Source: Candidatus Magasanikbacteria bacterium RIFOXYD1_FULL_40_23 | GTDB taxonomy: Bacteria; Patescibacteriota; Patescibacteriia; Magasanikbacterales; GWA2-37-8 | Length of the DNA: 64,000 bases | Reading direction: 5' to 3' | Assembly (NCBI GenBank): GCA_001783215.1 | Contig: MFRA01000005.1 | Location: 146,824 to 210,823, forward strand | Part shown: piece by piece, positions 14,924 through 61,621 of the stretch | Layout of the letters: every line of letters begins with the position of its first letter | Position numbering within the stretch: the first letter of the stretch is position 1 | Notes under the pieces: generated by a model | The model's input: the letters and a program-made list of their open reading frames with translations, nothing else | Database searches by the model: none | What the model was told of the DNA's origin: nothing | Program-made: the position numbers and the translations under genes

Positions 14924-17725
14924 TTGTTCGTTGACAATACACCGAAACTTGCAACCGATAGGAAGTACCAAATGTCGAAATCTCCAAAGAAAAGGACCCC
15001 AGCAGAGGAGCTGGCTTGGTTATGTGATTTTTCTATTACCGCCTGCGTGGCTCACGTGAGTGAGTTTGCGCCAGGCACTGATTATTTCAAGGCTGCCGAA
15101 GCAGATGCATCGGTGGTCATTGAGAGTCTAAAGCAGACGCCGGATCTCACAGGTGTGATTATCGACGGTATGGCCAGCGTGCGCCGTCCCGGTATTCTTG
15201 ATGACAGCGTGGTGTTCTATAACAGTACCGAAGAAGAGGTGCTCGCACACCTTGAAAAGGTGCCATCGCACGACCACGTTCACTGGATGTTTAACAAACT
15301 TTTAGAGATCCAAGATGTGTGGCTTGGCAAATTCCGTAAGGCGTTGCCGGCAGTCAAGATTGTTTATTCGGCCGACTCGGACGACTTGGCAGCTACGGCC
15401 GAGCGCATGTTGCGGGTGATTGTGCAGTCTGCAACGGTAAAAGCTTCTCAGACTAAGAAGAGTTTGGAAGAGCAGCGTGATGAGCTGCAAGCCAGGCTCG
15501 ATGGTCCGGGCAAGCTGACTAGCTCTGTTCTGCAGGCTAAGTTGCACGAGCTCCAATCTAAGCGCAAAAAGTTGGTTGGAACCTCTGGTAAGAGTGAGCT
15601 CAGGGCAGTTGAGGCTGATTTTGCCGAGGCGAAAGAAGGCCTACATCTTCTCGCTGAGCGTGAGCGGTTGGTAATTAAGCTTCGAGTCAATAAGGCAAAG
15701 AAGAAGCAAAAGTTAATCGAAAAAACCGAAGCCGAGCTGGTTTCGGTTCAAGCCGAGATTAGCGCCAGAGAAGATGGTGTGGTCAAGGCACTGAACAAGG
15801 CTATTGAAGCTAGAGAAAGGTTCAGTGGCGAGGTTGGCAAGAAAGCCGATCGCGATGCCCTTGATTTGGACATTAAAGAGCTTCGAAAGAGCATCGAAGA
15901 TATTAGAGAAAAAATTGCCAAGATCCAAACCAGAATGACCAAGCTGGAAAAGGTCTTTAAGAACTTGCGTGAATCGGAAACTAGCCCGGTATACGGTAAG
16001 CGTATGACCGAGCACGTGCGCAGGTTGTATAAGCGCTTCTATGCTTTGGGTCAAAAGCACAATGTCCAAGTTGTGTTCAAGCCCGAAGTGCTGGTCTTTG
16101 GAAATTTGGTGATTGACTATGCGCACGATCGCGGCCGCACTTGGCAGCCGATGCCTGGGCGTGTGCGTCGATTGGCAGAGTCGTATCATGGAATGATGAC
16201 AAGCTATCGTGAAAACATTGCCGAAGCGCTGGAGGAGCAAAAGGCTGCTACGCGCGAGGTGGATGTTGTTATGGAGAGCGGTCATCACGGTGTCTTCTTT
16301 GCTCGTTGGCAGAAGCAGGAGCTTACGCCGGAAGAAATTCGCATGCAGCACGTGAACACGTACTACACGGGTGCAAGCGATGATGTGAAACACACGGTGT
16401 TTATTGCAGGTATGCCGTTTGAGCCGCAAGATGAGATCGATAAGTACCTCAAGCGACAGAAGCCGGGTCGGACCCGTGCTGGCAAGCCTATTGCCAGTTC
16501 TTCGCACCCCGTGTTTATTCGTAACTCTCAGAAGTCAGTTGCCGGTGTGACGCTTGTGCGTAAACACAACCACGGACTAATTTCCGTGGAAGCGATTATG
16601 TACTTTCTCTACCGGAATAAGCAGGTGTTGGAACAGTTCAAGGGCGTGATGATTCTGCTTGATTCAGATAATCACTTGAACTCGCCCGAAATGGATTGCC
16701 CAGGCACTCTCGGTGAGCTTGCCCTTCTTGATCAGCTGATCAAGAATCCTATGGTGCTCTACAACCAGAAGATCTATGTGGGTGGCAACCTTAACTTGGG
16801 TGATGTATCCGAAGCGAACTCCAAGAAGTGGAAAGAGGCAGTTAAATTCCGTCGCCCGGTGATGGAAATTCTTCAGGAAATCGCTATGCTCGTCGCTGGA
16901 ACTGATACCAGCAACCCCAAGTCTGTGGCCGAGACTGCGCTTCGTTGGGCCAACGACATGATGGGTGGAGCAAACGAGAGTATGAAGTTGAATATGCGGG
17001 TAACGAAGTGGTTCCTCAAGGAGAAATTCATGAGGATCTATAATCAGAGCCCGACTCGTTTGCGCGACATTATGGCCGTGTTGGAGGGCAATCACTTTGC
17101 CGATGCGGTGCGTGATGTTGGTATTCAGGAGTTTACTTTGTTTGAGGAGTGGTTAATTGCTATGCGGGATGCGCACATTGATTTTCCGGAGAAGGGGCGC
17201 AAGCCTTTCCCTGTGAGAATCGAGGCCGGTGGCGAACCGCAATACTTCCAGCCGGATAATGGCAAGGCCGAAGTAGTGGTGCACTTAGGAGGTTATAGCA
17301 GTGCTCGACAAGGAATTATTGAGAAGTTTGGTGTGGGCCATGATGGCAAGTTGCTAGTGCAAGCTCCTTGTAGGGTTGGGCTCACTCACGAGCCGAACGC
17401 CATCTTGAATAAGGCTCGTAACCAGAACGCTGACGTGACCTATGCGGGGCATACGCATGAGTTTTACGTCATGGCAGATAAGAGTGGCACTAACAAGGTG
17501 CGTTTCATCCATCAGCTGGGTGCAACGCAGCGAGTGTCTGCTACAGAGCTAATGTATGGTGGATTGCCTCGTACGTCTGGAGTAGCGCTGGCTGTTATTC
17601 CGCGTCCAGGGCGATATTGGACTATGATGATCCCTATGAACCACATGCGTCGCATTGGTGAGGCGCAGCGAATGGTTGATGCAGAAGCAGAGGTGGCCAA
17701 GAAGAATGGTAAAAAGAAAGAGTAA
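14924..17725 (+). CDS. large hypothetical protein (933 aa). It has an N-terminal domain, a long coiled-coil region and a C-terminal region with weak metallophosphatase-like motifs. An alternative start at 14972 is possible.
   Basis: Long GC-rich ORF (~52% GC). Heptad-like charged segment around aa 180-360. DYAHDRG and GHTHEFYV resemble calcineurin-like phosphoesterase motifs II and VI; this is tentative. The alternative start MSKSPKK has an SD (ggaagtaccaaATG). Confidence 0.55.
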   Translation: MFVDNTPKLATDRKYQMSKSPKKRTPAEELAWLCDFSITACVAHVSEFAPGTDYFKAAEADASVVIESLKQTPDLTGVIIDGMASVRRPGILDDSVVFYNSTEEEVLAHLEKVPSHDHVHWMFNKLLEIQDVWLGKFRKALPAVKIVYSADSDDLAATAERMLRVIVQSATVKASQTKKSLEEQRDELQARLDGPGKLTSSVLQAKLHELQSKRKKLVGTSGKSELRAVEADFAEAKEGLHLLAERERLVIKLRVNKAKKKQKLIEKTEAELVSVQAEISAREDGVVKALNKAIEARERFSGEVGKKADRDALDLDIKELRKSIEDIREKIAKIQTRMTKLEKVFKNLRESETSPVYGKRMTEHVRRLYKRFYALGQKHNVQVVFKPEVLVFGNLVIDYAHDRGRTWQPMPGRVRRLAESYHGMMTSYRENIAEALEEQKAATREVDVVMESGHHGVFFARWQKQELTPEEIRMQHVNTYYTGASDDVKHTVFIAGMPFEPQDEIDKYLKRQKPGRTRAGKPIASSSHPVFIRNSQKSVAGVTLVRKHNHGLISVEAIMYFLYRNKQVLEQFKGVMILLDSDNHLNSPEMDCPGTLGELALLDQLIKNPMVLYNQKIYVGGNLNLGDVSEANSKKWKEAVKFRRPVMEILQEIAMLVAGTDTSNPKSVAETALRWANDMMGGANESMKLNMRVTKWFLKEKFMRIYNQSPTRLRDIMAVLEGNHFADAVRDVGIQEFTLFEEWLIAMRDAHIDFPEKGRKPFPVRIEAGGEPQYFQPDNGKAEVVVHLGGYSSARQGIIEKFGVGHDGKLLVQAPCRVGLTHEPNAILNKARNQNADVTYAGHTHEFYVMADKSGTNKVRFIHQLGATQRVSATELMYGGLPRTSGVALAVIPRPGRYWTMMIPMNHMRRIGEAQRMVDAEAEVAKKNGKKKE

Positions 17726-32534: not shown

Positions 32535-32563
32535 TTATCCACATAGGCTCAATAGTGAATTTA

Positions 32564-32572
32564 TGGTATAAT
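32564..32572 (+). promoter_or_regulatory. extended -10 promoter (TGgTATAAT)
   Basis: ttatggtataat, ~30 nt upstream of the MKREKFF start of the giant ORF. Confidence 0.35.
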
Positions 32573-32602
32573 TCTTTCGTAAAGAAACCCTCTTTTATTC
32601 TT

Positions 32603-35600
32603 ATGAAAAGGGAAAAATTTTTTAGTTTGTATCCTGCTCTTATCAAAAAAAGATTAAAGAATTTGTTTTTGTTACTTAATTTCAAACATCGCTCCCTCCA
32701 CTTATTTAAAAAAAGACAATTTCACGCTACGGTGGCCGGTCTTTTGCTTGTAGTTATTTTGGTAAATGTATTTCAGCCTTGGTCAGACGAAATTGCTCAA
32801 GGTGCAACTTATACTTTTGTACAAAGCAGTTGGAGTGGGGGAGTTAGCGCTTCGGTTCCTCTACATCCTACCAACCAAACTAGCTGGACAAATTTTTCTA
32901 CTAGCACAAACACCTTCACTACAGGTACTACCACAGTTACCATAGCCAGTACCACCTATAGCTCTACTGATGACGGTACCTTTACCTCTACCGGTAGTGC
33001 AACCGGGGGTGGTTTTAGCAATGGTGTTACCTCTACTGTGGCTGTCTCTGGTAGTGGCGCATCCGCTGTAATTAAATTATCAGGTGGTGTAACTACGATA
33101 AATCGGGTTACTGCCACTTCTTCAAATACTGGTACGAGCGCTAACTTTCACGGTGCTTCTCAGATGATTGGTGCTTCAGGGTCAGACTACTTATATTTTG
33201 TAGAAGCTGCCAATGAGGGGAGAGCGTTACGCCGCTATTCCATTTCCGGAAATTCGTGGACAGATTTAGCGGCTTATACATACGCTTATTTTGGTGCTCA
33301 ATTACTTTGGAATGGTACCGACGATTATATGTATCTAGCAGAAGGTCAAAGTAATGCCTTTACTCGTTACTCTATCTCCGGAAATTCGTGGTCATCTATG
33401 GCGAATATACCAGCTGCCTTGCCTACAAGCATTACTCAAACTGCGGCCCTGCGCTATGGAACAGAAGATTATATATATCTTTGGAGAGGTGCCGGACAGA
33501 CAGCATTTTATCGTTATTCAATTAGTGGCGATAGTTGGAGTACCCTCGATGCATTACCAGCTGCGGCTGGCGTTGGTATTCAAGCTATCAGAGATGCAGA
33601 TAGCAATTTTATTTATGTTGCTAGCGGGGTCAGTACAAATTTTTATCGTTACAATATATCTGCAAATACAACTTCTGCGATGACAGCTATTCCAGCATCC
33701 CTTACCGGTATACAGTCTTACGCTCTCCATGATGAAGGTAGTGATTATATTTATCTTTTAGCAAATGATGGTTTTTATAGATATTCTATTTCCGGTAATT
33801 CATGGTCGACTATGGCTAGCGCCGCGTCGGTTAATCCAGATTTTGGTTCAACATTAATCCATAGCGCAGGAGAAGATGTTATATATGTAGCAGGTGATTG
33901 GGACTGTTGTTCAATTGTAAAATTATGGGGATATTCTATCGCAGGTGATTCTTGGACATCATATCATACAATTACAGCTCATTCGGGTGGTTATGGTTCT
34001 CCAAATAAAACAGCTTACCGAAGAGCGGGTGATGACTATTTTTACTTTTTCACTGCCAACCAAGATAATGAGTTGTTTAAATTTACAATAAGCCAAACCG
34101 TTTATAACTCTTCTGGTAATTTTACCTCTGCTGCTATGGATTTGGGTGTTGCCAAAATGAATTCTTTTTCATGGAGCAGTACCACGCCTTCGGGGGTAGG
34201 TAGCAATTCCATCCAATTCCAGCTTGCGGCCAATAATGATAATAGTACATGGAGTTTTGTGGGGCCGGACGGTACTAGCGGAACATATTTTACAACCAAT
34301 GGCACGACGGTTTTTCCATCTTCATTGCAACAAAATCTTCGCTATTGGAAATACAAAGCGTATTTGAGTACAGCCGACACTAGTGTAACCCCAGTGTTAA
34401 ACAGTGTTACTTTTGGTTACTCTTCTTATGCTGCCACAAGCTCGCTTATTTCTTCTATATATGATACAGCCGATCCAACCAATGTAGTGGCCAGTATTGC
34501 TTGGACTGAATATGAGCCAACTAGCACCACAGTCAAATTTCAATTACGAACAGGCGCTAGTTCGTCTAGTGTGGCTTCTGCTACCTGGATGGGTCCGGAC
34601 GGTACAAATTCTTCATACTTTACCACTTTTGGTGGCGAGACAACTACTTCCACCATGCGTGATGGCTCAAGCGATCAGTATTTCCAGTACAAAGTATTTT
34701 TAGAAACAACAAACTCTTCATACACTCCAACACTTTCGAGTGTTACAGTTACCTATGTAGTTAATGCTGCTCCAGAGATTCAAAATGTTTTGGCTAGCCA
34801 GAGCGCTACTGGCACAGTCTCTATTAGCTATCAGGCACGAGACTCAGACACAGATACAGGTACAGTAAACCCTGGCTATGTTAGTTCCACCTTTGAATAT
34901 TTAGATGCAAACGGTGCTTATCAAACTATCCCTGCAGGCCAACTTTCGGCTGGAGCAAATAGTGGTATAGCGGTAGATGATGTAAATTGGACTACAAATA
35001 CTGTTACTTGGACACCGGCATCAGGTTTAAGTGTGGCTGCTAGTAGAATTAGAGTAACAATAAATGATAACGAAGCAGCTAATAACACCACTTCTACTAT
35101 TTCAGATACTTTCCAAATAGATAGCGTTTCACCAGCTTCGGGTGCGATAGTTGTAGATGGATCTCAAGTGCCGGCTGTTGTTACCCTTACAGCCACCGAT
35201 AGTTCTTCTTTGTACATGAAAGTTTCGGAGAATAGCACTTTGTCGGATGTTTCTAGTTGGTCCGCTCTTACTGCTACCACCTCTATTACACTTACTGCCA
35301 ACCCAGCAACAGTTTATGTACAATTTAAAGACGCTTTTAACAATACGTCTAGTATTTTTAGTGCTACTACTCCTAACACGCCAAGCAGTACGATAGTTCA
35401 AGATATTTCTAACGTTTTAAACGGGGCTACTGACTACCGTTTGTTTGTGGCTTGGAGAGTAATTACTACTCCAGTGCCAGGTTTTGCAAATTATAGAATT
35501 TATAGATCTTTAGATCAATCTGATTGGACTCCGATTGCTACCAACACTTCTATAAACGACAATTATACTGCCGACAGCTCTATATCTTCTAACACACTTT

Positions 35601-38600
35601 ATTACTATAAAGTAAAATCCACTGACTCTTCCGGTAATGTTTCTGTATTTTCTTCTATCGTAAATGCTCGCGCTAACGGGGATCAAGATGCGGGTGAAGG
35701 TGGTGGTGGTACGGGAATAGAAAGCGCGCCCGTTATTACATCTGTGGCAACATCATCTGTTTCGCCAACTTCAATTACCATCACTTGGAATACGGATGTT
35801 TTATCAAATTCCGTAGTTGGTTTTTCAACTATTCTTGGTAATTTTACCGACAATGTATTATCCGTAGGTGGTATGTTTGATAACCCTAGTTCTGTAGGCG
35901 CGCATACTGTAGTTTTAGGTGGTCTCACTCCAAATACTACTTATTATTTTAATGTAAAATCCACTGCTGCTGGTGGCGCGTCTGCCTCTTCTTCGGATGG
36001 TGGTAATGGTTTTATTGTTAGAACCTTAAATGGTCCTGTTATTTCCGGTGTTTCGGCTCCAGAAGTTTATAATACTTTTGCCAGAGTAGTTTGGACCACT
36101 TCGGAAAACGCAAATAGTTATGTAATTTATTCTACTTCCACCGATTTATCTAACCCTATAGTTACTAGTACTATTGTAACGTTTGGGACTTCGCACGACC
36201 TAACCCTAACCGGTTTAACGGCTGGTACAAATTATTATTATTATGTTCAGTCGGCGAATGTTGGGATGATTACGACAACCGATAAAAACATAGTAAATGG
36301 TATTCCAGAATACTTTAGTTTGGCGACTACTTTAGATGTTACCGCTCCTACAATTTCTTCTATTGCCACCACTAGCGTCGGTAATAATTCTGCCAACGTT
36401 ACTTGGGTTACAAACGAAAATGCAGATTCGCAGATAGCTTATGGTACTACGACTAATTATGGCACCACCACTACTTTAGATTCTACTTTTACGGCCCAAC
36501 ACTTGGTTACGCTTTCTGGTTTAGCTTCTTCCACTGTCTATCATTTTAAAATTTTATCACGAGATAGAAATGATAATTTAGCAGAATCCTCCGATCAAAT
36601 TTTCGAAACAGCTGCAGCTGCCGATACAATCGCTCCGACAATATCTTCGGTTGCCACTTCAAGTGTTACTCTTACTAGCTTTACAGTTACTTGGTCTACC
36701 AACGAAGTCGGTTCTTCTATCGTGGAGTATGGCACAAACACGTCTTCTTACAATAGTTTAGCTGGTTCAAATACAGATTCAGTTACGTCTCATTCGGTGA
36801 CTGTAAGCAGTCTAAGTGGTAATGCTACTTATTATTTTCGAGTTAGATCAGCAGATTCGGCTGGTAATTCTGCCACAGATAGCAACGGCGGTGCTGGCTG
36901 GGAAGTTAGAACAGTTGCCGACACTACCGCTCCAACCATTTCCAATATTAGTACGCTGGTAAACAATACAACTACCCAAATCACTTGGACCACCAACGAA
37001 GCGGCTAATTCCGAAATTAATTATGGTTCAACTTCAAGCTCTCTTAACACAACTGCTTCCAGCTCAACTTTGCAGACTAACCACGCCATTACCATTACCG
37101 GTTTAACAGCCGACACTACTTATTATTTCCGAGTTAGATCTACAGACGCTTCAAGCAATGTTGCGACCGACGATAATGGCGGCGCTGCTTATAGCTTTAC
37201 CACATTGCTTACTCCGGGTGGTACAACTATTATTATTACCGGTGGTTCTAGCGCTCAGCGTGGAGATAGAGAGCCCCCTATAATTAGCAATATTGAAATA
37301 GTAAATGTTACAGCCAATTCGGCTAGCGTGACTTGGAGAACCAGCGAAGACGGAAATTCTTTGGTTAGATTTGGTGTCAGCGAAACTTATGGTACTTTAG
37401 TGGGTAATGATTTGGAATTATTAACTTCAAATCACACTGTTAAGATGTCTAATTTAAGAGCTGCTCAAACCTATCATTTGAGAGCTATTACCTATGATGA
37501 AGCAGGTAATAGAACCGAATCAAATGATCAAGCGTTTACCACTTTAAATATTGATGGAACAGAAGCTCCGCCTAGTACTAGTACAGCAGAGGAGATTATA
37601 GAGGAAGAAAAAGAAATACAATCTCCACAAACAGAACAATTTATATCGGATGCTTTAAAAAAAGCTTCTAGTGAGTCCTTAGAAAAATTCTTGAGGGATA
37701 TAGCTGCCAATCCATTGCTCAAAGATATTCCTGAAGATAAATTTATCCAGGCACTGCTTGAAATGACAAGTCGTGTAATTGAACCTCCAACTATTGTGGG
37801 TATTAAACCAACAGTAGATGTTCAAGGAACTACTGCAATTATCAAATGGTCTACAGACAAGAAATCTTCTTCAGAAATAAATTATGCTAAAGAAAGTGAA
37901 TACAAACCTAACGACTCTACCCCATACACCAACGCAGCTGTTAGCCCGGATGAATTTAGTGTAAATCACAGCGTAAAATTAACTGGTCTTGATCCGGGTG
38001 TTCTTTATCACTTCAAAGTTATATCCAAAGGCCTTATTGGTGCACCAGCTATGAGTGGTGATTATACATTCCAAACCACCGGTGATTTACCAGTTATTTC
38101 CGACATAAGAGTTACCAGACCAAAAGATTTACAATCATCTATCGTTGTAAATTGGAAGACAAATGTTTCTACTGCTGGTAGCGTAGAATATAGAAACGCT
38201 AAATCTGGTCAATCTCTAACTCAAGGTGATTCAGCGCTGCTCATAAATCACGAAGTCACGTTGAAGGGTCTTGAGGGCGGTGTAAATTATACTTTGGTAC
38301 TTAAAGGTAAAGATGAGTTTAGTAATGAAGTATCCAGTCTTCCTATAACTTTCTCTACTACTTTAGATAAGGCCGAACCAACCATATCCAAACTTTCATC
38401 AGAATCCACATTGTATCCAGGCAAGGATTCCAAAGTTCAAACTATTATTTCTTGGGAAACAGACGAACCAGCAACCTCTCAGGTTTTCTACCAAGAAGGT
38501 GCGGCTACAGACAAAGTTACAGCCCTTCCATTAGACAGTTCCTTAAACACTCGTCATATTGTGGTAGTAACCAAGTTTAAACCAGGCACAGTTTATAAGT

Positions 38601-38749
38601 ATTGGGTAGAATCCAAAGATTTGGCCGGTAATGCTGGCAAATCGGAAGTGTTCTCCATCCTGACGCCTCAAGAAAAAGAAACCATTGTTGATATAATTAT
38701 TAACAATTTCCAATCAGTATTTGGTTGGACCAAGAATATAGGCATCTAG
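32603..38749 (+). CDS. giant membrane-anchored cell-surface protein (~2050 aa). It has an N-terminal TM anchor, six YRYSISGNSW beta-propeller-like repeats and many fibronectin-III / purple-acid-phosphatase-N-like repeats.
   Basis: TM segment ATVAGLLLVVILVNVF. Repeats include YRYSISGNSWTDL, TRYSISGNSWSSM, YRYSISGDSWSTL, YRYSISGNSWSTM and WGYSIAGDSWTSY. At least 12 repeats of the type 'TAPTISS.ATTSV...AN.TW.TNE.A.S...YGTT..Y' are present. The protein is Thr/Ser-rich. Confidence 0.7.
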   Translation: MKREKFFSLYPALIKKRLKNLFLLLNFKHRSLHLFKKRQFHATVAGLLLVVILVNVFQPWSDEIAQGATYTFVQSSWSGGVSASVPLHPTNQTSWTNFSTSTNTFTTGTTTVTIASTTYSSTDDGTFTSTGSATGGGFSNGVTSTVAVSGSGASAVIKLSGGVTTINRVTATSSNTGTSANFHGASQMIGASGSDYLYFVEAANEGRALRRYSISGNSWTDLAAYTYAYFGAQLLWNGTDDYMYLAEGQSNAFTRYSISGNSWSSMANIPAALPTSITQTAALRYGTEDYIYLWRGAGQTAFYRYSISGDSWSTLDALPAAAGVGIQAIRDADSNFIYVASGVSTNFYRYNISANTTSAMTAIPASLTGIQSYALHDEGSDYIYLLANDGFYRYSISGNSWSTMASAASVNPDFGSTLIHSAGEDVIYVAGDWDCCSIVKLWGYSIAGDSWTSYHTITAHSGGYGSPNKTAYRRAGDDYFYFFTANQDNELFKFTISQTVYNSSGNFTSAAMDLGVAKMNSFSWSSTTPSGVGSNSIQFQLAANNDNSTWSFVGPDGTSGTYFTTNGTTVFPSSLQQNLRYWKYKAYLSTADTSVTPVLNSVTFGYSSYAATSSLISSIYDTADPTNVVASIAWTEYEPTSTTVKFQLRTGASSSSVASATWMGPDGTNSSYFTTFGGETTTSTMRDGSSDQYFQYKVFLETTNSSYTPTLSSVTVTYVVNAAPEIQNVLASQSATGTVSISYQARDSDTDTGTVNPGYVSSTFEYLDANGAYQTIPAGQLSAGANSGIAVDDVNWTTNTVTWTPASGLSVAASRIRVTINDNEAANNTTSTISDTFQIDSVSPASGAIVVDGSQVPAVVTLTATDSSSLYMKVSENSTLSDVSSWSALTATTSITLTANPATVYVQFKDAFNNTSSIFSATTPNTPSSTIVQDISNVLNGATDYRLFVAWRVITTPVPGFANYRIYRSLDQSDWTPIATNTSINDNYTADSSISSNTLYYYKVKSTDSSGNVSVFSSIVNARANGDQDAGEGGGGTGIESAPVITSVATSSVSPTSITITWNTDVLSNSVVGFSTILGNFTDNVLSVGGMFDNPSSVGAHTVVLGGLTPNTTYYFNVKSTAAGGASASSSDGGNGFIVRTLNGPVISGVSAPEVYNTFARVVWTTSENANSYVIYSTSTDLSNPIVTSTIVTFGTSHDLTLTGLTAGTNYYYYVQSANVGMITTTDKNIVNGIPEYFSLATTLDVTAPTISSIATTSVGNNSANVTWVTNENADSQIAYGTTTNYGTTTTLDSTFTAQHLVTLSGLASSTVYHFKILSRDRNDNLAESSDQIFETAAAADTIAPTISSVATSSVTLTSFTVTWSTNEVGSSIVEYGTNTSSYNSLAGSNTDSVTSHSVTVSSLSGNATYYFRVRSADSAGNSATDSNGGAGWEVRTVADTTAPTISNISTLVNNTTTQITWTTNEAANSEINYGSTSSSLNTTASSSTLQTNHAITITGLTADTTYYFRVRSTDASSNVATDDNGGAAYSFTTLLTPGGTTIIITGGSSAQRGDREPPIISNIEIVNVTANSASVTWRTSEDGNSLVRFGVSETYGTLVGNDLELLTSNHTVKMSNLRAAQTYHLRAITYDEAGNRTESNDQAFTTLNIDGTEAPPSTSTAEEIIEEEKEIQSPQTEQFISDALKKASSESLEKFLRDIAANPLLKDIPEDKFIQALLEMTSRVIEPPTIVGIKPTVDVQGTTAIIKWSTDKKSSSEINYAKESEYKPNDSTPYTNAAVSPDEFSVNHSVKLTGLDPGVLYHFKVISKGLIGAPAMSGDYTFQTTGDLPVISDIRVTRPKDLQSSIVVNWKTNVSTAGSVEYRNAKSGQSLTQGDSALLINHEVTLKGLEGGVNYTLVLKGKDEFSNEVSSLPITFSTTLDKAEPTISKLSSESTLYPGKDSKVQTIISWETDEPATSQVFYQEGAATDKVTALPLDSSLNTRHIVVVTKFKPGTVYKYWVESKDLAGNAGKSEVFSILTPQEKETIVDIIINNFQSVFGWTKNIGI

Positions 38750-57566: not shown

Positions 57567-58859
57567 ATGCAAACTTTTATCAAAAATTTAGCATCTCTGG
57601 TAGATCAGGAAGTAGAGATTAAAGCTTGGTTATATAACAAACGTTCCTCTGGGCCGATTGCCTTTTTGGAATTGCGAGACGGTACCGGTTGGGTGCAAGC
57701 TGTGGCAGCAAAGTCCGATTTGAGCGCTACTGTGTGGGAAGACGTAGAAAAAGCTACTCAAGAATCATCTGTGGTAATTTTGGGTAAAGTAGCTAAACAC
57801 CCAAAAAAAGAAAATGTTTTTGAGTTGCAAGTTAAAGATTTTAAAATTATTCAATTGGCTCAAGAGTACCCAATTGCTCACAAAGAACATGGCCCAGATT
57901 TTCTAATGGAGAATCGGCACTTGTGGTTGCGTAGTAAAAAGCAATGGGCGATATTGCGTGTACGTGATTCTATTATTACTGCTATCGGTGAATATCTACA
58001 CAAAGAACTTTTTATAAAAGTAGATTCACCAGTATTTACGCCAAATGCCTGTGAAGGTACAACCACGCTTTTCCCAGTGCCATATTTTGATTTGGGCACA
58101 GCGTACTTATCTCAATCTGGTCAGCTGTATATAGAAGCAGCCATCGCTTCCGTTGGTCGTTGTTATGATTTTGGGCCAGTGTTTCGTGCCGAAAAAAGTA
58201 AAACAAAAAGACATCTAACAGAGTTTTGGATGATGGATGCCGAAGCTGCTTTTGTAGAGCATGAAGAAAATTTAAAAATCCAAGAAGGATTGGTGCGATA
58301 TATAATTCGCTACTGTTTAAATAACTGCCAAGAAGAATTGAGAATTTTGGAACGCAATACGGAGCCATTAGAAAAAGCCGACAATCCATTTACTCGTTAT
58401 ACTTATGATGAAGCAATAAAGAAATTAAACGAGCTTGGGTCAGACATAAAATATGGTGAAGATTTAGGAAATGATGATGAGGGAATACTAACCAAAGATT
58501 CTGAAGTGCCAGTATTTATAGAAAAATGGCCAAAAAGCATAAAGCCGTTTTATATGAAACGAGATTCTGTTAATCCGGATTTGGTTTTAAATGATGATTT
58601 AATTGCGATAGAAGGTGCGGGAGAGATAATCGGTGGGAGTCAGCGTGAAGATGATTATGATTTGCTACTATCTAGAATAAAAGCGGAAGGTTTAAATATA
58701 GAAGATTACCAATGGTATTTAGATTTGCGAAAATATGGAAGTGTGCCCCATGCTGGATTTGGTATTGGTTTAGAACGTATGGTTCGTTGGGTTACTGGTG
58801 TAGAGCATATTCGTGAATGTATTCCATTTCCTAGGACGATTGGAAGATTAAAGCCATAA
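57567..58859 (+). CDS. asnS: asparaginyl-tRNA synthetase (class IIb)
   Basis: FRAEKSKTKRHLTEFWMMDAE (AsnRS-type EFWM motif), GGSQRE, and the class II motif 3 GFGIGLERMV. Confidence 0.75.
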   Translation: MQTFIKNLASLVDQEVEIKAWLYNKRSSGPIAFLELRDGTGWVQAVAAKSDLSATVWEDVEKATQESSVVILGKVAKHPKKENVFELQVKDFKIIQLAQEYPIAHKEHGPDFLMENRHLWLRSKKQWAILRVRDSIITAIGEYLHKELFIKVDSPVFTPNACEGTTTLFPVPYFDLGTAYLSQSGQLYIEAAIASVGRCYDFGPVFRAEKSKTKRHLTEFWMMDAEAAFVEHEENLKIQEGLVRYIIRYCLNNCQEELRILERNTEPLEKADNPFTRYTYDEAIKKLNELGSDIKYGEDLGNDDEGILTKDSEVPVFIEKWPKSIKPFYMKRDSVNPDLVLNDDLIAIEGAGEIIGGSQREDDYDLLLSRIKAEGLNIEDYQWYLDLRKYGSVPHAGFGIGLERMVRWVTGVEHIRECIPFPRTIGRLKP

Positions 58860-58877
58860 ACAAAATAAACACAGGTT

Positions 58878-58903: not shown

Positions 58904-59056
58904 TTTATTCTTAGCCAAATTTTGACTTGTAAACATTGACAAAATGGCAAAAATATGATAATAATATGCGCAGATAACCCTCCGCTTTGGAGGGCTCTTT
59001 GACAATGTGTGGCGGTTAGATTCGCTACACATAAGACACAGTCGGGGGAAACGTCA

Positions 59057-60331
59057 ATGGCTTTCGAACAGAAACAGGCAACAGGAAGTGGTGCTTTGGA
59101 TAATAGCGCGGAAGGTGCCAGCTATCGGGCTGGTGCTGGTGGGCAGAAAGGCAATGGTGCTGCTGCCGGGAAGGTTCCGGCGACCTCCAAGCTTAGGGTC
59201 AAGCCTAAGCAGGCTGCTGAACCCGAAGAGATCGTTATGACCGGCCACCCCTTGCTCGACAAGGGGCTTGCCTGTGATGATCGAGAGGGCAAGGCGCCTG
59301 AATGTCCGCTTGATGAGCGGGACGCCAAACGTCTTGAAGATATGGTTGAGCGTGCGGGCACGGCCTATTGTATGGCCATGATCATGGCGCTCGGCAATCT
59401 CTATCTCGAGTTCAAGACCAAGCATCACAAGACTTGGGGTCCGTGGCATGAGATTTTCTTTCTCGTTGTAACCACAGCGGCCTTCGGTCCGCTTGGTGCG
59501 CTTGGTGCCTCGGTAGGAGCTCGTGCAGCTGTGGGGCTCGCGATGCGTGGTGCCACAAGGGCAGCATGGACAGCAGCCAGCATTGATGCATCGAAGCTCA
59601 TTGGCGTTTTCACTACGATGTCGAAGGGTGTGCGTAGCTCCCTTGCCCATCGTAGCGTTGATATGCCGACCGACGAGATTGAGTTCATCAAGTACATGCA
59701 GGACCAGGTGCCGGGCTTCGTCGAGAATCTCATGCAAGGCATTGCTGAGCATGAACTTGATCAGCTCGAGATGCTCGAAGTGGTCGCCCGGCTACAAGAT
59801 CCGGACATTTCCGGACGGGCTGCTATTGAGCACCGTGGCCGTACGTTGTTGGCACAGTTCGGCGAGAACCGCATCGGTTCGATTGGGAATGTTATGGACC
59901 TTGGTGGAGGTTACGAAGTAGCTACTCCAGTACGCGTTCGTCTTCGCAAGAAGGAATTAATGGTTCTATGTGAAAGCCTTGGTGTTCACCATTCGGCCCT
60001 TGCGCTTAATGGTGCCAACCTGGACCTGGAACCAGGTGTTTCTAAGATGACGATGGAGAGCCTAGTCTACGTCAAGATGATTGAACCGGCTTTTCATGAG
60101 CTGGTTACCGCTGAGTACAGTGGTAAGCGGAAAGAGGAAGTTCCGTTCATCAACTTCGATGATTGCGCCGAGCGAAAGAAACATCGTTGGTTCAAAGATA
60201 TGTACCACGATATGAAGCGGCGCGAACGGCTTGAAAAATATATCGACGATATGCACAACATTGGCGGGCTGCCTGCCAATGACATGGACGACGAAAACAA
60301 TGGTGACATGGTCGCCGAAGCGGGAGAGTGA
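59057..60331 (+). CDS. hypothetical protein (GC-rich, ~55% GC; internal Gly/Ala-rich hydrophobic segment)
   Basis: 425-aa ORF. SD gggggaaacgtcaATG. Preceded by a TTGACA...TAATAAT promoter (~58938-58966) and the hairpin ccctccgctttggaggg. Confidence 0.5.
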   Translation: MAFEQKQATGSGALDNSAEGASYRAGAGGQKGNGAAAGKVPATSKLRVKPKQAAEPEEIVMTGHPLLDKGLACDDREGKAPECPLDERDAKRLEDMVERAGTAYCMAMIMALGNLYLEFKTKHHKTWGPWHEIFFLVVTTAAFGPLGALGASVGARAAVGLAMRGATRAAWTAASIDASKLIGVFTTMSKGVRSSLAHRSVDMPTDEIEFIKYMQDQVPGFVENLMQGIAEHELDQLEMLEVVARLQDPDISGRAAIEHRGRTLLAQFGENRIGSIGNVMDLGGGYEVATPVRVRLRKKELMVLCESLGVHHSALALNGANLDLEPGVSKMTMESLVYVKMIEPAFHELVTAEYSGKRKEEVPFINFDDCAERKKHRWFKDMYHDMKRRERLEKYIDDMHNIGGLPANDMDDENNGDMVAEAGE

Positions 60332-60756
60332 ATACAGTGAGGAATGCAATTTTCGTCATCATCTTTACTGGTCTGATCGGCTTTCTGGGGCTCACTTCCA
60401 AGAGGCAGTACGATAAGATTAACACACTTACTTCACAGGTCTCCAAACACAAGGAGGTTCGCGAGAAGATGTGCAATCGCATCCTGTCTATTTCTGAAGA
60501 AATGGCTCAGGTGACCCTTCAGACGCCGCTCAACATCGAGGATAGTCAACGGCTGCGCACAGACTTGCTAGCAGTTGGGGCCTATGCCGAAGGATGTGTT
60601 GATCTGCCTAGTATCACCAAGAAAGCAATGGAGGGTTGTCAGAACGGAAGTGTTGACGACAGTCTTCTCAAAGAAGGTGTTTGGGCGCTCGACGAAGAGT
60701 TGAGCGTTGCCAAGAAGAATGGGTGGAAACTATATGAGCAGAAGCCCAAGTTGTAG
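60328..60756 (+). CDS. hypothetical membrane-anchored protein (GC-rich), translationally coupled to the upstream ORF
   Basis: The GTG start overlaps the upstream TGA (GTGA). N-terminal TM helix AIFVIIFTGLIGFLGL. 142 aa. Confidence 0.45.
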   Translation: MNTVRNAIFVIIFTGLIGFLGLTSKRQYDKINTLTSQVSKHKEVREKMCNRILSISEEMAQVTLQTPLNIEDSQRLRTDLLAVGAYAEGCVDLPSITKKAMEGCQNGSVDDSLLKEGVWALDEELSVAKKNGWKLYEQKPKL

Positions 60757-60814
60757 CTGAAAGTAGTAAGAGTCATCTAAACGGAGAAGTCCGTGCAGAT
60801 GCTATAAGCAGTTC

Positions 60815-60848
60815 ACCAGGCACACCGTGCCTGGTTATTTGTTTTTAT
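60815..60848 (+). terminator. rho-independent terminator
   Basis: ccaggcacaccgtgcctggttatttgttttt. Confidence 0.7.
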
Positions 60849-60917
60849 AGGTAAGATTGACCTTGCTAGATAATTTGCTATAAACAAAATTGCCACAAAG
60901 AGTAGCATTTAACAGGG

Positions 60918-60959: not shown

Positions 60960-61041
60960 GCCGAAGTGGCGGAATTGGTAGACGCACACGACTCAAAATC
61001 GTGCGGAGAAATCCATGAGAGTTCGATTCTCTCCTTCGGCA
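60960..61041 (+). tRNA. tRNA-Leu (anticodon CAA), type II with a long variable arm
   Basis: GCCGAAGTGGCGGAATTGGTAGACGCACACGACTCAAAATCGTGCGGAGAAATCCATGAGAGTTCGATTCTCTCCTTCGGCA. Anticodon loop ACTCAAAAT. Confidence 0.85.
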
Positions 61042-61050
61042 CAATATTAT

Positions 61051-61105
61051 TATTTCATGGCAATATTAACAAGAGAATGCCTTTCTTTTTAATATTGCCA
61101 TGAAA
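61051..61105. repeat. perfect 17-bp inverted repeat (large hairpin) between the tRNA-Leu gene and the next ORF
   Basis: atttcatggcaatattaa...(19 nt)...ttaatattgccatgaaat. Confidence 0.6.
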
Positions 61106-61127
61106 TTGAAAACAGGAGGCAAGTCAA

Positions 61128-61385
61128 ATGATGAGAATCAGGGTTAGAGGAGAAGTCTATAATGGGAGAACGGCTGTAGAGCTGGTTTCCCATATGCGTT
61201 CCGACTTTAATGCGTTTGCGAGAAAGCCAGCAAGCTCCAATGCGGCTTATATGGATCGTAGGATTCAGTGGTTTAAGGCTCATTCTAACGTAGAAGTGGT
61301 GCGTGACGGAACGACAGAAGAAGATCAGTGTCTTTCGTTTATTCGTTCTATGGTCAACGGCGGGTTGGCAGAGGAGATCACGTGA
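61128..61385 (+). CDS. hypothetical protein
   Basis: 85-aa ORF with a strong SD (acaggaggcaagtcaaATG). Confidence 0.45.
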   Translation: MMRIRVRGEVYNGRTAVELVSHMRSDFNAFARKPASSNAAYMDRRIQWFKAHSNVEVVRDGTTEEDQCLSFIRSMVNGGLAEEIT

Positions 61386-61445
61386 CTAAGATTGGCGGCG
61401 AGATAACATCAAGCCGTTTTTTTATTAGTGTCCGTAATGAAATAG

Positions 61446-61495
61446 AGGCCCGCCCAGGCACCTTTTGTTATAAACAGAAGGTCGGGCTTATTTTT
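61446..61495 (-). terminator. R4 element copy 2, in reverse orientation relative to copy 1
   Basis: The reverse complement, aagcccgaccttctgtttataacaaaaggtgcctgggcgggcct, shares its flanks (aagcccgacc ... ctgggcgggc) with 42202-42248. Confidence 0.4.
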
Positions 61496-61513
61496 AATTT
61501 ATGTGTTATAATA

Positions 61514-61550
61514 TTCTAAGATTTAGAATTTCTAAATATTTAGAAGCAAA
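61514..61550. promoter_or_regulatory. two adjacent inverted repeats upstream of parA (candidate operator)
   Basis: attctaaGATttagaat and tttctaaaTAtttagaa. Confidence 0.35.
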
Positions 61551-61621
61551 GCTTTGCAATTCCGTCAGGTCTCACAAATAAGAAAAATACATTTTTCTTA
61601 TTTGATTTAACCTTAGCAATT
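61551..61621 (+). promoter_or_regulatory. R1 leader element (divergent copy) upstream of parA
   Basis: gctttgcaattccgtcaggtctcacaaataagaaaaatacatttttcttatttgatttaaccttagcaattGTG. The paired boxes covary (AGGT/ACCT). Confidence 0.5.

Follow-up and report, generated by a model that had tools for sequence, protein, structure and literature searches.

What is a gene pair of conspicuously high G+C content doing between asnS and a tRNA-Leu gene of an ultra-small bacterium, and how did it come to be there? The question is raised by a stretch of 64,000 nt from Candidatus Magasanikbacteria bacterium RIFOXYD1_FULL_40_23 (GenBank assembly GCA_001783215.1, contig MFRA01000005.1, positions 146,824 to 210,823 of the forward strand), which we call the window. 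The host belongs to the Candidate Phyla Radiation (CPR), ultra-small bacteria that have tiny genomes and are thought to be attached to other cells; the larger predicted protein, A, is 100% identical to a RIFOXYD1_FULL_40 hypothetical protein, and the smaller, B, is encoded directly downstream. An earlier reading made from the letters of the DNA alone (the sequence-only reading) had described the two genes as a GC-rich cassette with its own promoter and terminator, reminiscent of toxin-immunity or effector-chaperone pairs. With high confidence we conclude that A and B are the core of a three-gene unit, U-A-B, otherwise found on high-GC phage-like contigs, and that this core was taken up by an ancestor of the window lineage and of its sister, L010. 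The function that we propose for the pair is a good deal more tentative.

Composition and origin of the A-B cassette

The two genes form a self-contained unit (58936-60845) between the asnS terminator and the tRNA-Leu promoter, flanked by ordinary genes: map, ruvX, recO and asnS on the 5' side, and tRNA-Leu(CAA), parA, parB and a RelA/SpoT-family gene on the 3' side (Table 1). Their G+C content is 0.505-0.578 in 400-nt intervals from 59000 to 60199, against 0.34-0.43 in the flanks (0.54 for gene A and 0.49 for gene B), and the G+C content of third codon positions (GC3) is 0.56 in A and 0.58 in B, compared with 0.28-0.34 in ruvX, recO and asnS. The contrast in composition on which the sequence-only reading had remarked is thus borne out, as are the tRNA gene downstream and the presence of consensus-type promoter and terminator sites at the two ends of the cassette, both of which are assigned by consensus match only. 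The promoter block, ATTGACAAAATG...TATGnTAA, is conserved in front of A in L010 and of both cassette genes in a second relative, L018. Between promoter and gene A the mRNA would fold into two hairpins (58978-58994 and 59005-59032, with CTCTTTGACAAT between them; -32.1 kcal/mol, z = -2.6), a layout retained in L018 (z = -3.3) and L010 (z = -0.8) with different stem sequences, and GGGGGA lies 8 nt before the ATG at 59057.

Two details of the earlier description needed correction. Protein A is 424 rather than 425 aa long, and the GTGA overlap of the two genes is likely an artefact of open reading frame (ORF) calling, although the tight coupling of A and B is real. The longest ORF for B begins at the GTG at 60328 (60328-60756, 142 aa) and so overlaps the stop codon of A, but a Shine-Dalgarno-like GGGAGAG at 60320-60326 is poorly spaced for this codon and well spaced for the GTG at 60337, with which the L010 start, an ATG 4 nt past the A stop, is aligned. 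On the strength of this spacing and of the aligned start in L010, the GTG at 60337 is the more likely start, and B is probably a protein of 139 aa.

The A family is rare, with 30 representatives among 1.84 billion clusters in a full HMMER search and 6-9 clusters among 5.8 billion proteins in a word-seeded search; one of the 30, P0011 (7571 aa, 76 matched stretches), we regard as spurious, its sequence being repetitive and eukaryote-like. Loci outside the CPR have a G+C content of 56-69%, with GC3 values of 0.75-0.95 that match those of their own contigs. Four of them (L005, L006, L007 and L009) have neighbours matching PHROG or Pfam phage families and dense arrays of small ORFs: the L007 locus, taken from a groundwater contig of 197 kb, is surrounded by dozens of small unannotated ORFs that run in one direction, and has one PHROG match; L005 encodes an InPase-domain protein matching PHROGs annotated as virion structural or minor head protein, along with phrog_3329 and a DUF5131 protein; a head protein of the Gp80 type is present in L009; and L006 has a PHROG match. 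In L004 a 1244-aa protein gives a sub-threshold match to a tail-sheath C-terminus (E 0.036), the only sheath-like neighbour in the family, and in L011, a locus from a Myxococcales metagenome-assembled genome, the family member adjoins an RHS-repeat gene. No eCIS_core gene (a domain discussed below) was recorded among the called genes of L001-L009.

The phage-like loci share a trio in which A is preceded by a gene U (144-230 aa, in two subfamilies), with stop and start codons overlapping at the A start, and U is absent from the CPR copies. A homologue of B follows A directly in every locus, with a gap of 0-6 nt or an overlap, and the identities of A and B to the window proteins fall jointly, from 73/62% in L001 (the L010 contig) to 54/34% in L004, 49/30% in L005 and 35/15% in L006.

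The window is colinear with L010 from ruvX through the cassette, at 73% nucleotide identity; their AsnS proteins are 92% identical and are sisters on the AsnS tree. Synonymous sites are near saturation between the two (dS, the synonymous divergence, is about 1.5), and the ratios of nonsynonymous to synonymous divergence (omega) of A and B, 0.11 and 0.17 respectively, are of the kind that core genes show (0.03-0.26; ruvX 0.26, recO 0.09) and indicate purifying selection. Inside A, constraint is strongest in a hydrophobic hairpin described below (omega 0.04; 92% identity to L010) and weakest in the N-terminal region (0.30). With 0.56 (window) and 0.66 (L010), the GC3 of A falls between the host value of about 0.3 and those of the phage-side members, as would a gene imported long ago from a donor of very high G+C content and since shifted partly to host composition. 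There is accordingly little doubt in our minds that the imported genes acquired a promoter and a terminator of host type, moved part of the way to host G+C content and were kept by purifying selection. The L010 record (CAZUFD010000011.1, GCA_964619625.1) is titled 'uncultured Gammaproteobacteria bacterium', a label that is probably wrong since its gene order is colinear with that of the Magasanikbacteria window; nucleotide identity is 73-81% in the blocks that align between ruvX and the RelA/SpoT-family gene, and 99% over the tRNA.

The same data bear on the simplest alternative, namely that A and B are an ordinary envelope pair of the Magasanikbacteria whose G+C content follows from the Ala and Gly content of A, and that phages took the genes from bacteria. 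The composition of A (50 Ala and 41 Gly) does raise its G+C content, purifying selection is near core-gene levels and the promoter is host-like. We nevertheless consider this alternative very improbable. GC3 depends little on amino-acid content and reaches about twice the level of core genes, for which reason we rejected a mere Ala/Gly effect; none of 80 relatives has the pair, not even the closest ones other than L010; all other members lie on GC-rich loci whose GC3 they match; and the window version, in which a conserved N-terminal leader has been lost, is carried only by this lineage, L010 and P0002, a close copy on a short contig.

The slot between asnS and tRNA-Leu

The cassette lies on the 5' side of tRNA-Leu and is thus not a case of classical integration at the 3' end of a tRNA gene; neither an integrase ORF nor conserved att repeats were found in the unit. 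A 21-nt direct repeat (58853-58873 and 60877-60897; 81% identity) that brackets the cassette, its first copy spanning the asnS stop codon, was considered as an att site and rejected, being absent from L010 and L018; it is probably a chance occurrence in AT-rich spacer DNA.

A metagenome scan anchored on AsnS yielded 80 loci of relatives, with 62-89% AsnS identity. Far from being uniformly present with core-like codon usage, the A-B pair was found in none of the 80, by tblastn or with hidden Markov models (HMMs) of the two families. The slot is empty (46-63 bp) in L017, L032 and L035, holds unrelated genes in several other relatives, and in L012, L014 and L016 is occupied by a GC-rich non-coding element of 530-740 bp. 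In L018, which falls outside the clade of the window and its cassette-less relatives on the AsnS tree, it contains three genes (Table 1). The product of the second, A', is related to A at an hhalign probability of 98.9% (E 4e-17, 19% identity; family HMM E 6e-20). The 119-aa product of the third has no detectable similarity to B, profiles of U-like and B-like proteins match neither this nor the 315-aa product, and the extra gene has no match in Pfam or PHROG.

That A' is an orthologue of A that diverged in place was rejected, given 19% identity against 87% for AsnS and an omega of only 0.11 between the window and L010. It follows that the slot received the A family at least twice, or that a resident cassette was exchanged. 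The slot is hypervariable, with a pattern of allele turnover that is typical of conflict genes.

The non-coding element of L012, L014 and L016 (L012:2101-2606, L014:4032-4407, L016:7403-7821) is of note in its own right. It comprises about 350-500 nt with a G+C content of 0.47-0.51 and no convincing ORF, and has its own TTGACA/TATAAT-like promoter and a strong GC hairpin terminator. A motif of the form CGYAAYAC-[stem of 4-5 bp, 7-nt loop]-GGYTNGTGCR is present in four copies, one each in L012 and L014 and two in L016, the inner stems of which differ in sequence and keep their complementarity (with one G-U pair in L012). The element has no match in Rfam at the gathering score or at E <= 1 and is a candidate for a new structured RNA adjoining a tRNA gene.

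Table 1. Positions of the cassette features in the window, and of the insert occupying the same slot in L018
Feature	Position	Strand	Basis or remark
Promoter-like site, sigma-70-type, TTGACA-18-AATAAT	58936-58965	+	Consensus scan, 11/12 matches
5' leader of A mRNA, about 90 nt	58966-59056	+	Two hairpins, then GGGGGA ribosome-binding site
Gene A, 424 aa, unnamed rare family	59057-60331	+	ORF; ATG 59057, stop 60329-60331
A aa 1-59, disordered N-terminal region; leader remnant at aa 33-47 (nt 59153-59197)	59057-59233	+	AAAGKVPATSKLRV against consensus APGKRTRTQxLP
A aa 91-165, putative membrane-insertion hairpin	59327-59551	+	Hydropathy of the window protein and 30 family members
A aa 276-400, alpha/beta C-terminal domain, starting with NRIGSIG motif	59882-60256	+	Best-predicted part, pLDDT 84-96
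Gene B, probably 139 aa from GTG 60337 (142 aa if GTG 60328)	60337-60756	+	ORF, hydropathy
Intrinsic-terminator-like hairpin, 60815-60835 (9 bp, 6 G-C pairs), then T run	60815-60845	+	Inverted repeat I2; cassette end
tRNA-Leu(CAA)	60960-61042		Downstream of cassette
L018 insert, 3.3 kb, GC-rich, same slot, three genes	L018:7291-10631		AsnS 87% identical
L018 315-aa gene	L018:7470-8417		Own copy of the cassette promoter
L018 A', 475 aa, distant A-family member	L018:8656-10083		Recognisable leader APGKSTLTGKLPP
L018 119-aa protein	L018:10126-10485		N-terminal transmembrane helix, two spaced cysteines

Proteins A and B and the N-terminal leader

Protein A was modelled with AlphaFold2 from a 30-sequence alignment, giving a mean predicted local distance difference test score (pLDDT) of 74.5 and a predicted template modelling score of 0.62. 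Over the first 60 or so residues confidence is low and hardly any secondary structure is predicted (pLDDT <50 for aa 1-36), aa 87-270 are helical overall, with helices at 87-122, 130-148 and 150-163, and aa 290-400 form a well-predicted alpha/beta fold, followed by an acidic tail. Two hydrophobic helices with many Gly, Ala, Ser and Thr residues (about 94-115 and 129-163) are kept across the A family and are connected by a polar loop with the invariant residues W127 and E132. The Gly/Ala-rich hydrophobic segment and the acidic C-terminus had both been correctly picked out beforehand; the Kyte-Doolittle value is 1.88 at aa 133-151 and the net charge -8 over the last 44 residues. The C-terminal domain is the most conserved region between CPR and phage-side members (53-68% identity). 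Protein B, also as anticipated, is N-terminally membrane-anchored, with a single clear transmembrane (TM) helix by hydropathy (aa 4-24 of the 142-aa form; nt 60337-60399), and has a helical domain with conserved cysteines; its homologues share an invariant Cys and MCxR and GCVxLP motifs. The model of B, made from a single sequence, is of low confidence (pLDDT 58).

The N-terminus of the phage-side A proteins has a regular construction, in which M[GS]Y[DE] is followed by about 20 variable residues, the motif APGKRT[LR]T[EQ]xLP and then MTGxPxxDxGxxC. A profile of this leader, run against 5.8 billion proteins, matched otherwise unrelated proteins that carry the exact motif at an equivalent N-terminal position, 5 of 40 of which contain PF13699 (DUF4157, now eCIS_core), a domain described as a marker of the toxins of extracellular contractile injection systems (eCIS; PMC8213781). 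The contig of one such PF13699 protein also has an Ntox28 toxin gene, and a contig from the Kofleriaceae has a 53-aa ORF consisting of the leader only just before a 515-aa eCIS_core protein, as well as a second leader-bearing ORF; another leader-bearing protein sits on a phage-like contig. Scored with a profile of the 17-residue motif, eCIS_core proteins and phage-side A members reach 27-29 bits, A' of L018 13 bits and the three window-type CPR copies 0-2.4 bits (2.4 in the window). A literature search for the leader peptide strings returned nothing relevant.

In the Kofleriaceae contig (L098, JABTUH010000012.1) the ORFs at 2593 and 10022, the latter directly upstream of the eCIS_core protein, have near-identical stretches of about 45 residues ending in GPAPGKRTRSExLxPVQRR, which suggests an N-terminal module that is reused within one genome.

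There is thus some likeness to eCIS cargo. The first 45-60 residues of the A family are disordered and hydrophilic, which recalls cargo proteins with a disordered N-terminal loading sequence, whether or not they have an eCIS_core domain, such as Cgo1 and Cgo2 of AlgoCIS and eCIS-associated toxins (Geller et al. 2021); in AlgoCIS the disordered region upstream of DUF4157 is a cargo-loading signal and is necessary for loading (bioRxiv 10.64898/2026.05.27.728243). Leader-bearing PF13699 proteins occur in toxin-rich loci, and one A-family locus abuts the sheath-like gene of L004. Unlike eCIS cargo, however, neither A nor B has an eCIS_core (PF13699) match, no genes for a contractile injection system (CIS) are visible near the CPR copy, and the window motif has decayed. 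Because no conserved sequence has been reported in eCIS loading signals (PMC11297309), we can only infer that the motif may be what a particle-loading or processing machine recognises, and that it may have become dispensable once the genes entered a host without such a machine.

The leader, together with the neighbours of A in the donor loci, also raises the possibility that A is a virion or ejection protein of the donor phages, packaged via its leader and then ejected, in the manner of tape-measure or pilot proteins, to form or prime a DNA conduit in the host membrane, with B and U as assembly helpers, and that the CPR copy is a remnant co-opted for an unrelated role in the envelope. Gly/Ala-rich hydrophobic helices are typical of tape-measure proteins, and A has helices of this kind. 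The L004 trio adjoins a block that includes the sheath-like protein and a gene of weak similarity to tape-measure proteins; the top matches of the A model in BFVD, although non-significant, include tape-measure and internal virion proteins; and the leader resembles particle-loading signals (bioRxiv 10.64898/2026.05.27.728243). In L005, L007 and L009, however, the trio lies among small accessory-type genes with no recognised structural block, and there is no PHROG structural match. A remnant and its partner would not be expected to keep an omega of 0.04-0.11 through saturating synonymous divergence, nor to be acquired twice at one slot, and we therefore think this origin of the pair quite unlikely.

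Possible functions of the pair, and other features of the window

Our preferred, though tentative, proposal is that A may be a membrane-inserting effector and B its cognate membrane-anchored protector, the two forming a toxin/immunity or anti-phage module; we hold it as a possibility somewhat short of an even chance. In the donor setting A would be a delivered effector, loaded via its leader into a contractile-tail or virion particle, and U a possible adaptor or chaperone shielding the hydrophobic helices of A. After delivery the two small-residue-rich helices would insert as a hairpin into the target membrane and damage or gate it, with the C-terminal alpha/beta domain modulating this activity, while B, made from the same mRNA in fixed proportion and anchored in the producer membrane, would bind or block A and so protect the producer. 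Because U is missing and the leader decayed in the CPR host, the pair would there act inside the producing cell and without delivery, in addiction, abortive infection or exclusion of incoming phages.

Membrane effector/immunity pairs are familiar from the pore-forming colicins and their immunity proteins and from the type VI secretion system (T6SS) pairs Tse4-Tsi4, VasX-TsiV2 and Ssp6-Sip6. The cassette resembles them in the small-residue-rich hydrophobic hairpin within the helical region of A, in a small membrane-anchored protein encoded directly downstream and translationally coupled, and in its sporadic, horizontally mobile distribution with divergent alleles at one locus. It differs in that A has no sequence or fold similarity to solved structures, and in that colicin immunity proteins have three or four TM helices whereas B has one and a soluble domain. 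T6SS genes also occur as adaptor-effector-immunity triads, in which an Eag/DUF1795-type chaperone shields the TM helices of the effector. The U-A-B order of the phage-like loci is similar, with a small upstream gene, an effector with hydrophobic helices, a small downstream gene and overlapping stop and start codons, but U matches no Pfam family and no PDB sequence, there is no T6SS context, and U is absent from the CPR copies.

A further comparison, by description, is with the Sle1-type effectors of actinobacterial CIS, which are phage-derived and related to tape-measure proteins, have a TM helical hairpin and move to membranes, and of which one relative forms a toxin-antitoxin pair (bioRxiv 10.1101/2025.11.06.686954). 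Sle1 and A would have in common a phage origin, a largely helical make-up, a predicted TM hairpin and a link to contractile particles and DUF4157 proteins. The immediate partner of A is, however, a TM protein and not a DUF4157 protein, and the Sle1 hairpin is near the C-terminus, after a long coiled coil, whereas that of A (aa 94-163) precedes the alpha/beta domain.

Several observations weigh against A and B being effector and protector. The hairpin is only moderately hydrophobic (Kyte-Doolittle 1.0-2.1) and could equally well lie buried inside a soluble bundle of helices; no chemistry is suggested by the invariant residues T62, D68, R193 and W378; and in the closer family the C-terminal domain is the better conserved, unlike the variable ends of classical polymorphic toxins. 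Searches of A and B against Pfam, PHROGs, NCBIfam and PADLOC gave only noise (at best phrog_1383, E 0.025, and FlhB, E 0.026, the latter on the TM helix of B), none of the 5027 defence models of PADLOC-DB 2.0 matched either protein at E <= 1, sequence profiles of A, B and U found no match in the PDB, and no neighbour of the A model came out of Foldseek searches of the PDB and BFVD (best E 0.43 and 0.42, respectively). No recognisable toxin domain emerged in A from the family libraries or structure searches. The E-values of individual leader matches are weak (0.008-9), one leader-bearing protein has a plain chromosomal setting, and no CIS genes were seen flanking the cassette within the window. 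Scans of IMG/VR with the alignment and three single proteins, and a tblastn search of INPHARED, found no family member, so that the label 'phage' is one of locus context alone; the sole match (L096; 56 residues, 34% identity) was disregarded.

The resemblance to a toxin-immunity pair that had been suggested therefore fares unevenly: the phage-like provenance, the coupled membrane partner, the different partner of A' and the leader shared with eCIS_core proteins speak for it, and the lack of any toxin domain, catalytic motif or structural analogue speaks against it. The alternative of an effector-chaperone pair is not favoured, since B is membrane-anchored and downstream; the upstream U, missing here, is the more chaperone-like. 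The remark that neither protein has a recognised motif is upheld by the empty family-library, PDB and Foldseek searches, and homology to a housekeeping complex was likewise looked for in the family libraries and PDB profiles without any being found.

A further alternative is a domesticated phage exclusion or defence module, in which A and B would form a resident membrane complex that blocks genome injection or aborts infection by other phages without toxin/antidote logic, and which the CPR host would retain for its own protection. The cassette is like phage morons and superinfection exclusion genes in its phage origin, its own promoter and terminator, its position between core genes and the hydrophobic helices of both products; it has also been under long-term purifying selection in a host without U and the leader motif, and its slot shows the allele turnover of an arms race. 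On the other hand, neither the 5027 PADLOC models nor any known exclusion protein matched, the phage-like contigs of the family resemble large lytic-type genomes rather than prophages, and a conserved leader common to eCIS_core cargo-type proteins is unexpected in a resident membrane protein. We regard such a module as somewhat unlikely.

The effector/protector reading can be taken further, to a new class of particle-delivered membrane effectors in which the leader is a portable loading signal shared with eCIS_core cargo, and which CPR bacteria captured at least twice at one hot spot, stripped of leader and adaptor and put to stand-alone use as membrane toxin/protector or anti-phage modules. 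Weaponry would then have passed from phages of high-GC bacteria into ultra-small episymbionts; in this extended form we consider the reading unlikely. The cassette is not to be filed under the eCIS cargo, toxin, defence-model or prophage/island families, because it has no eCIS_core domain, CIS neighbourhood, toxin family, defence match, integrase or att sites. An N-terminal leader shared with other proteins and two very different alleles, A and A', in one slot would suit a polymorphic toxin, but the higher conservation of the C-terminal domain in the closer family would not. We class the unit as a mobile cassette of effector/protector type in a variable slot, made up of an undescribed protein family. 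Its provenance, the repeated capture and the leader motif in common with other proteins give firm leads that can be put to the test.

If the effector/protector proposal is correct, a family that has gone unannotated would join the repertoire of membrane-targeting effectors and protectors. The leader would provide a concrete cargo-recognition motif for phage-tail-like machines, useful for engineering protein-delivery particles. The repeated import of a phage-derived membrane module at one hot spot bears on defence, host interaction and gene flow from high-GC phages in the CPR, and even an inert pair would document a clear and datable horizontal transfer and a hypervariable slot.

Some other features of the window deserve mention. 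The spacer between tRNA-Leu and parA (61043-61621) is 580 bp long, compared with 139 bp in L010, and contains a 23-nt inverted repeat (61052-61106) and an 85-aa ORF (61128-61385) that matches no related locus and, in the searches described for A and B, no family or PADLOC defence model; it looks like a small window-specific insertion on the 3' side of the tRNA gene. A 933-aa ORF (14924-17725) with a G+C content of about 0.50 in a genome of 0.40 has no Pfam family; its middle part is long, charged and coiled-coil-like, a GHTHE motif at the C-terminal end is reminiscent of metallophosphoesterases, and it may be a second foreign gene. Finally, the 2064-aa protein encoded at 32555-38749, with about eight repeats of the Pur_ac_phosph_N/fibronectin-III type, is probably a giant surface protein.

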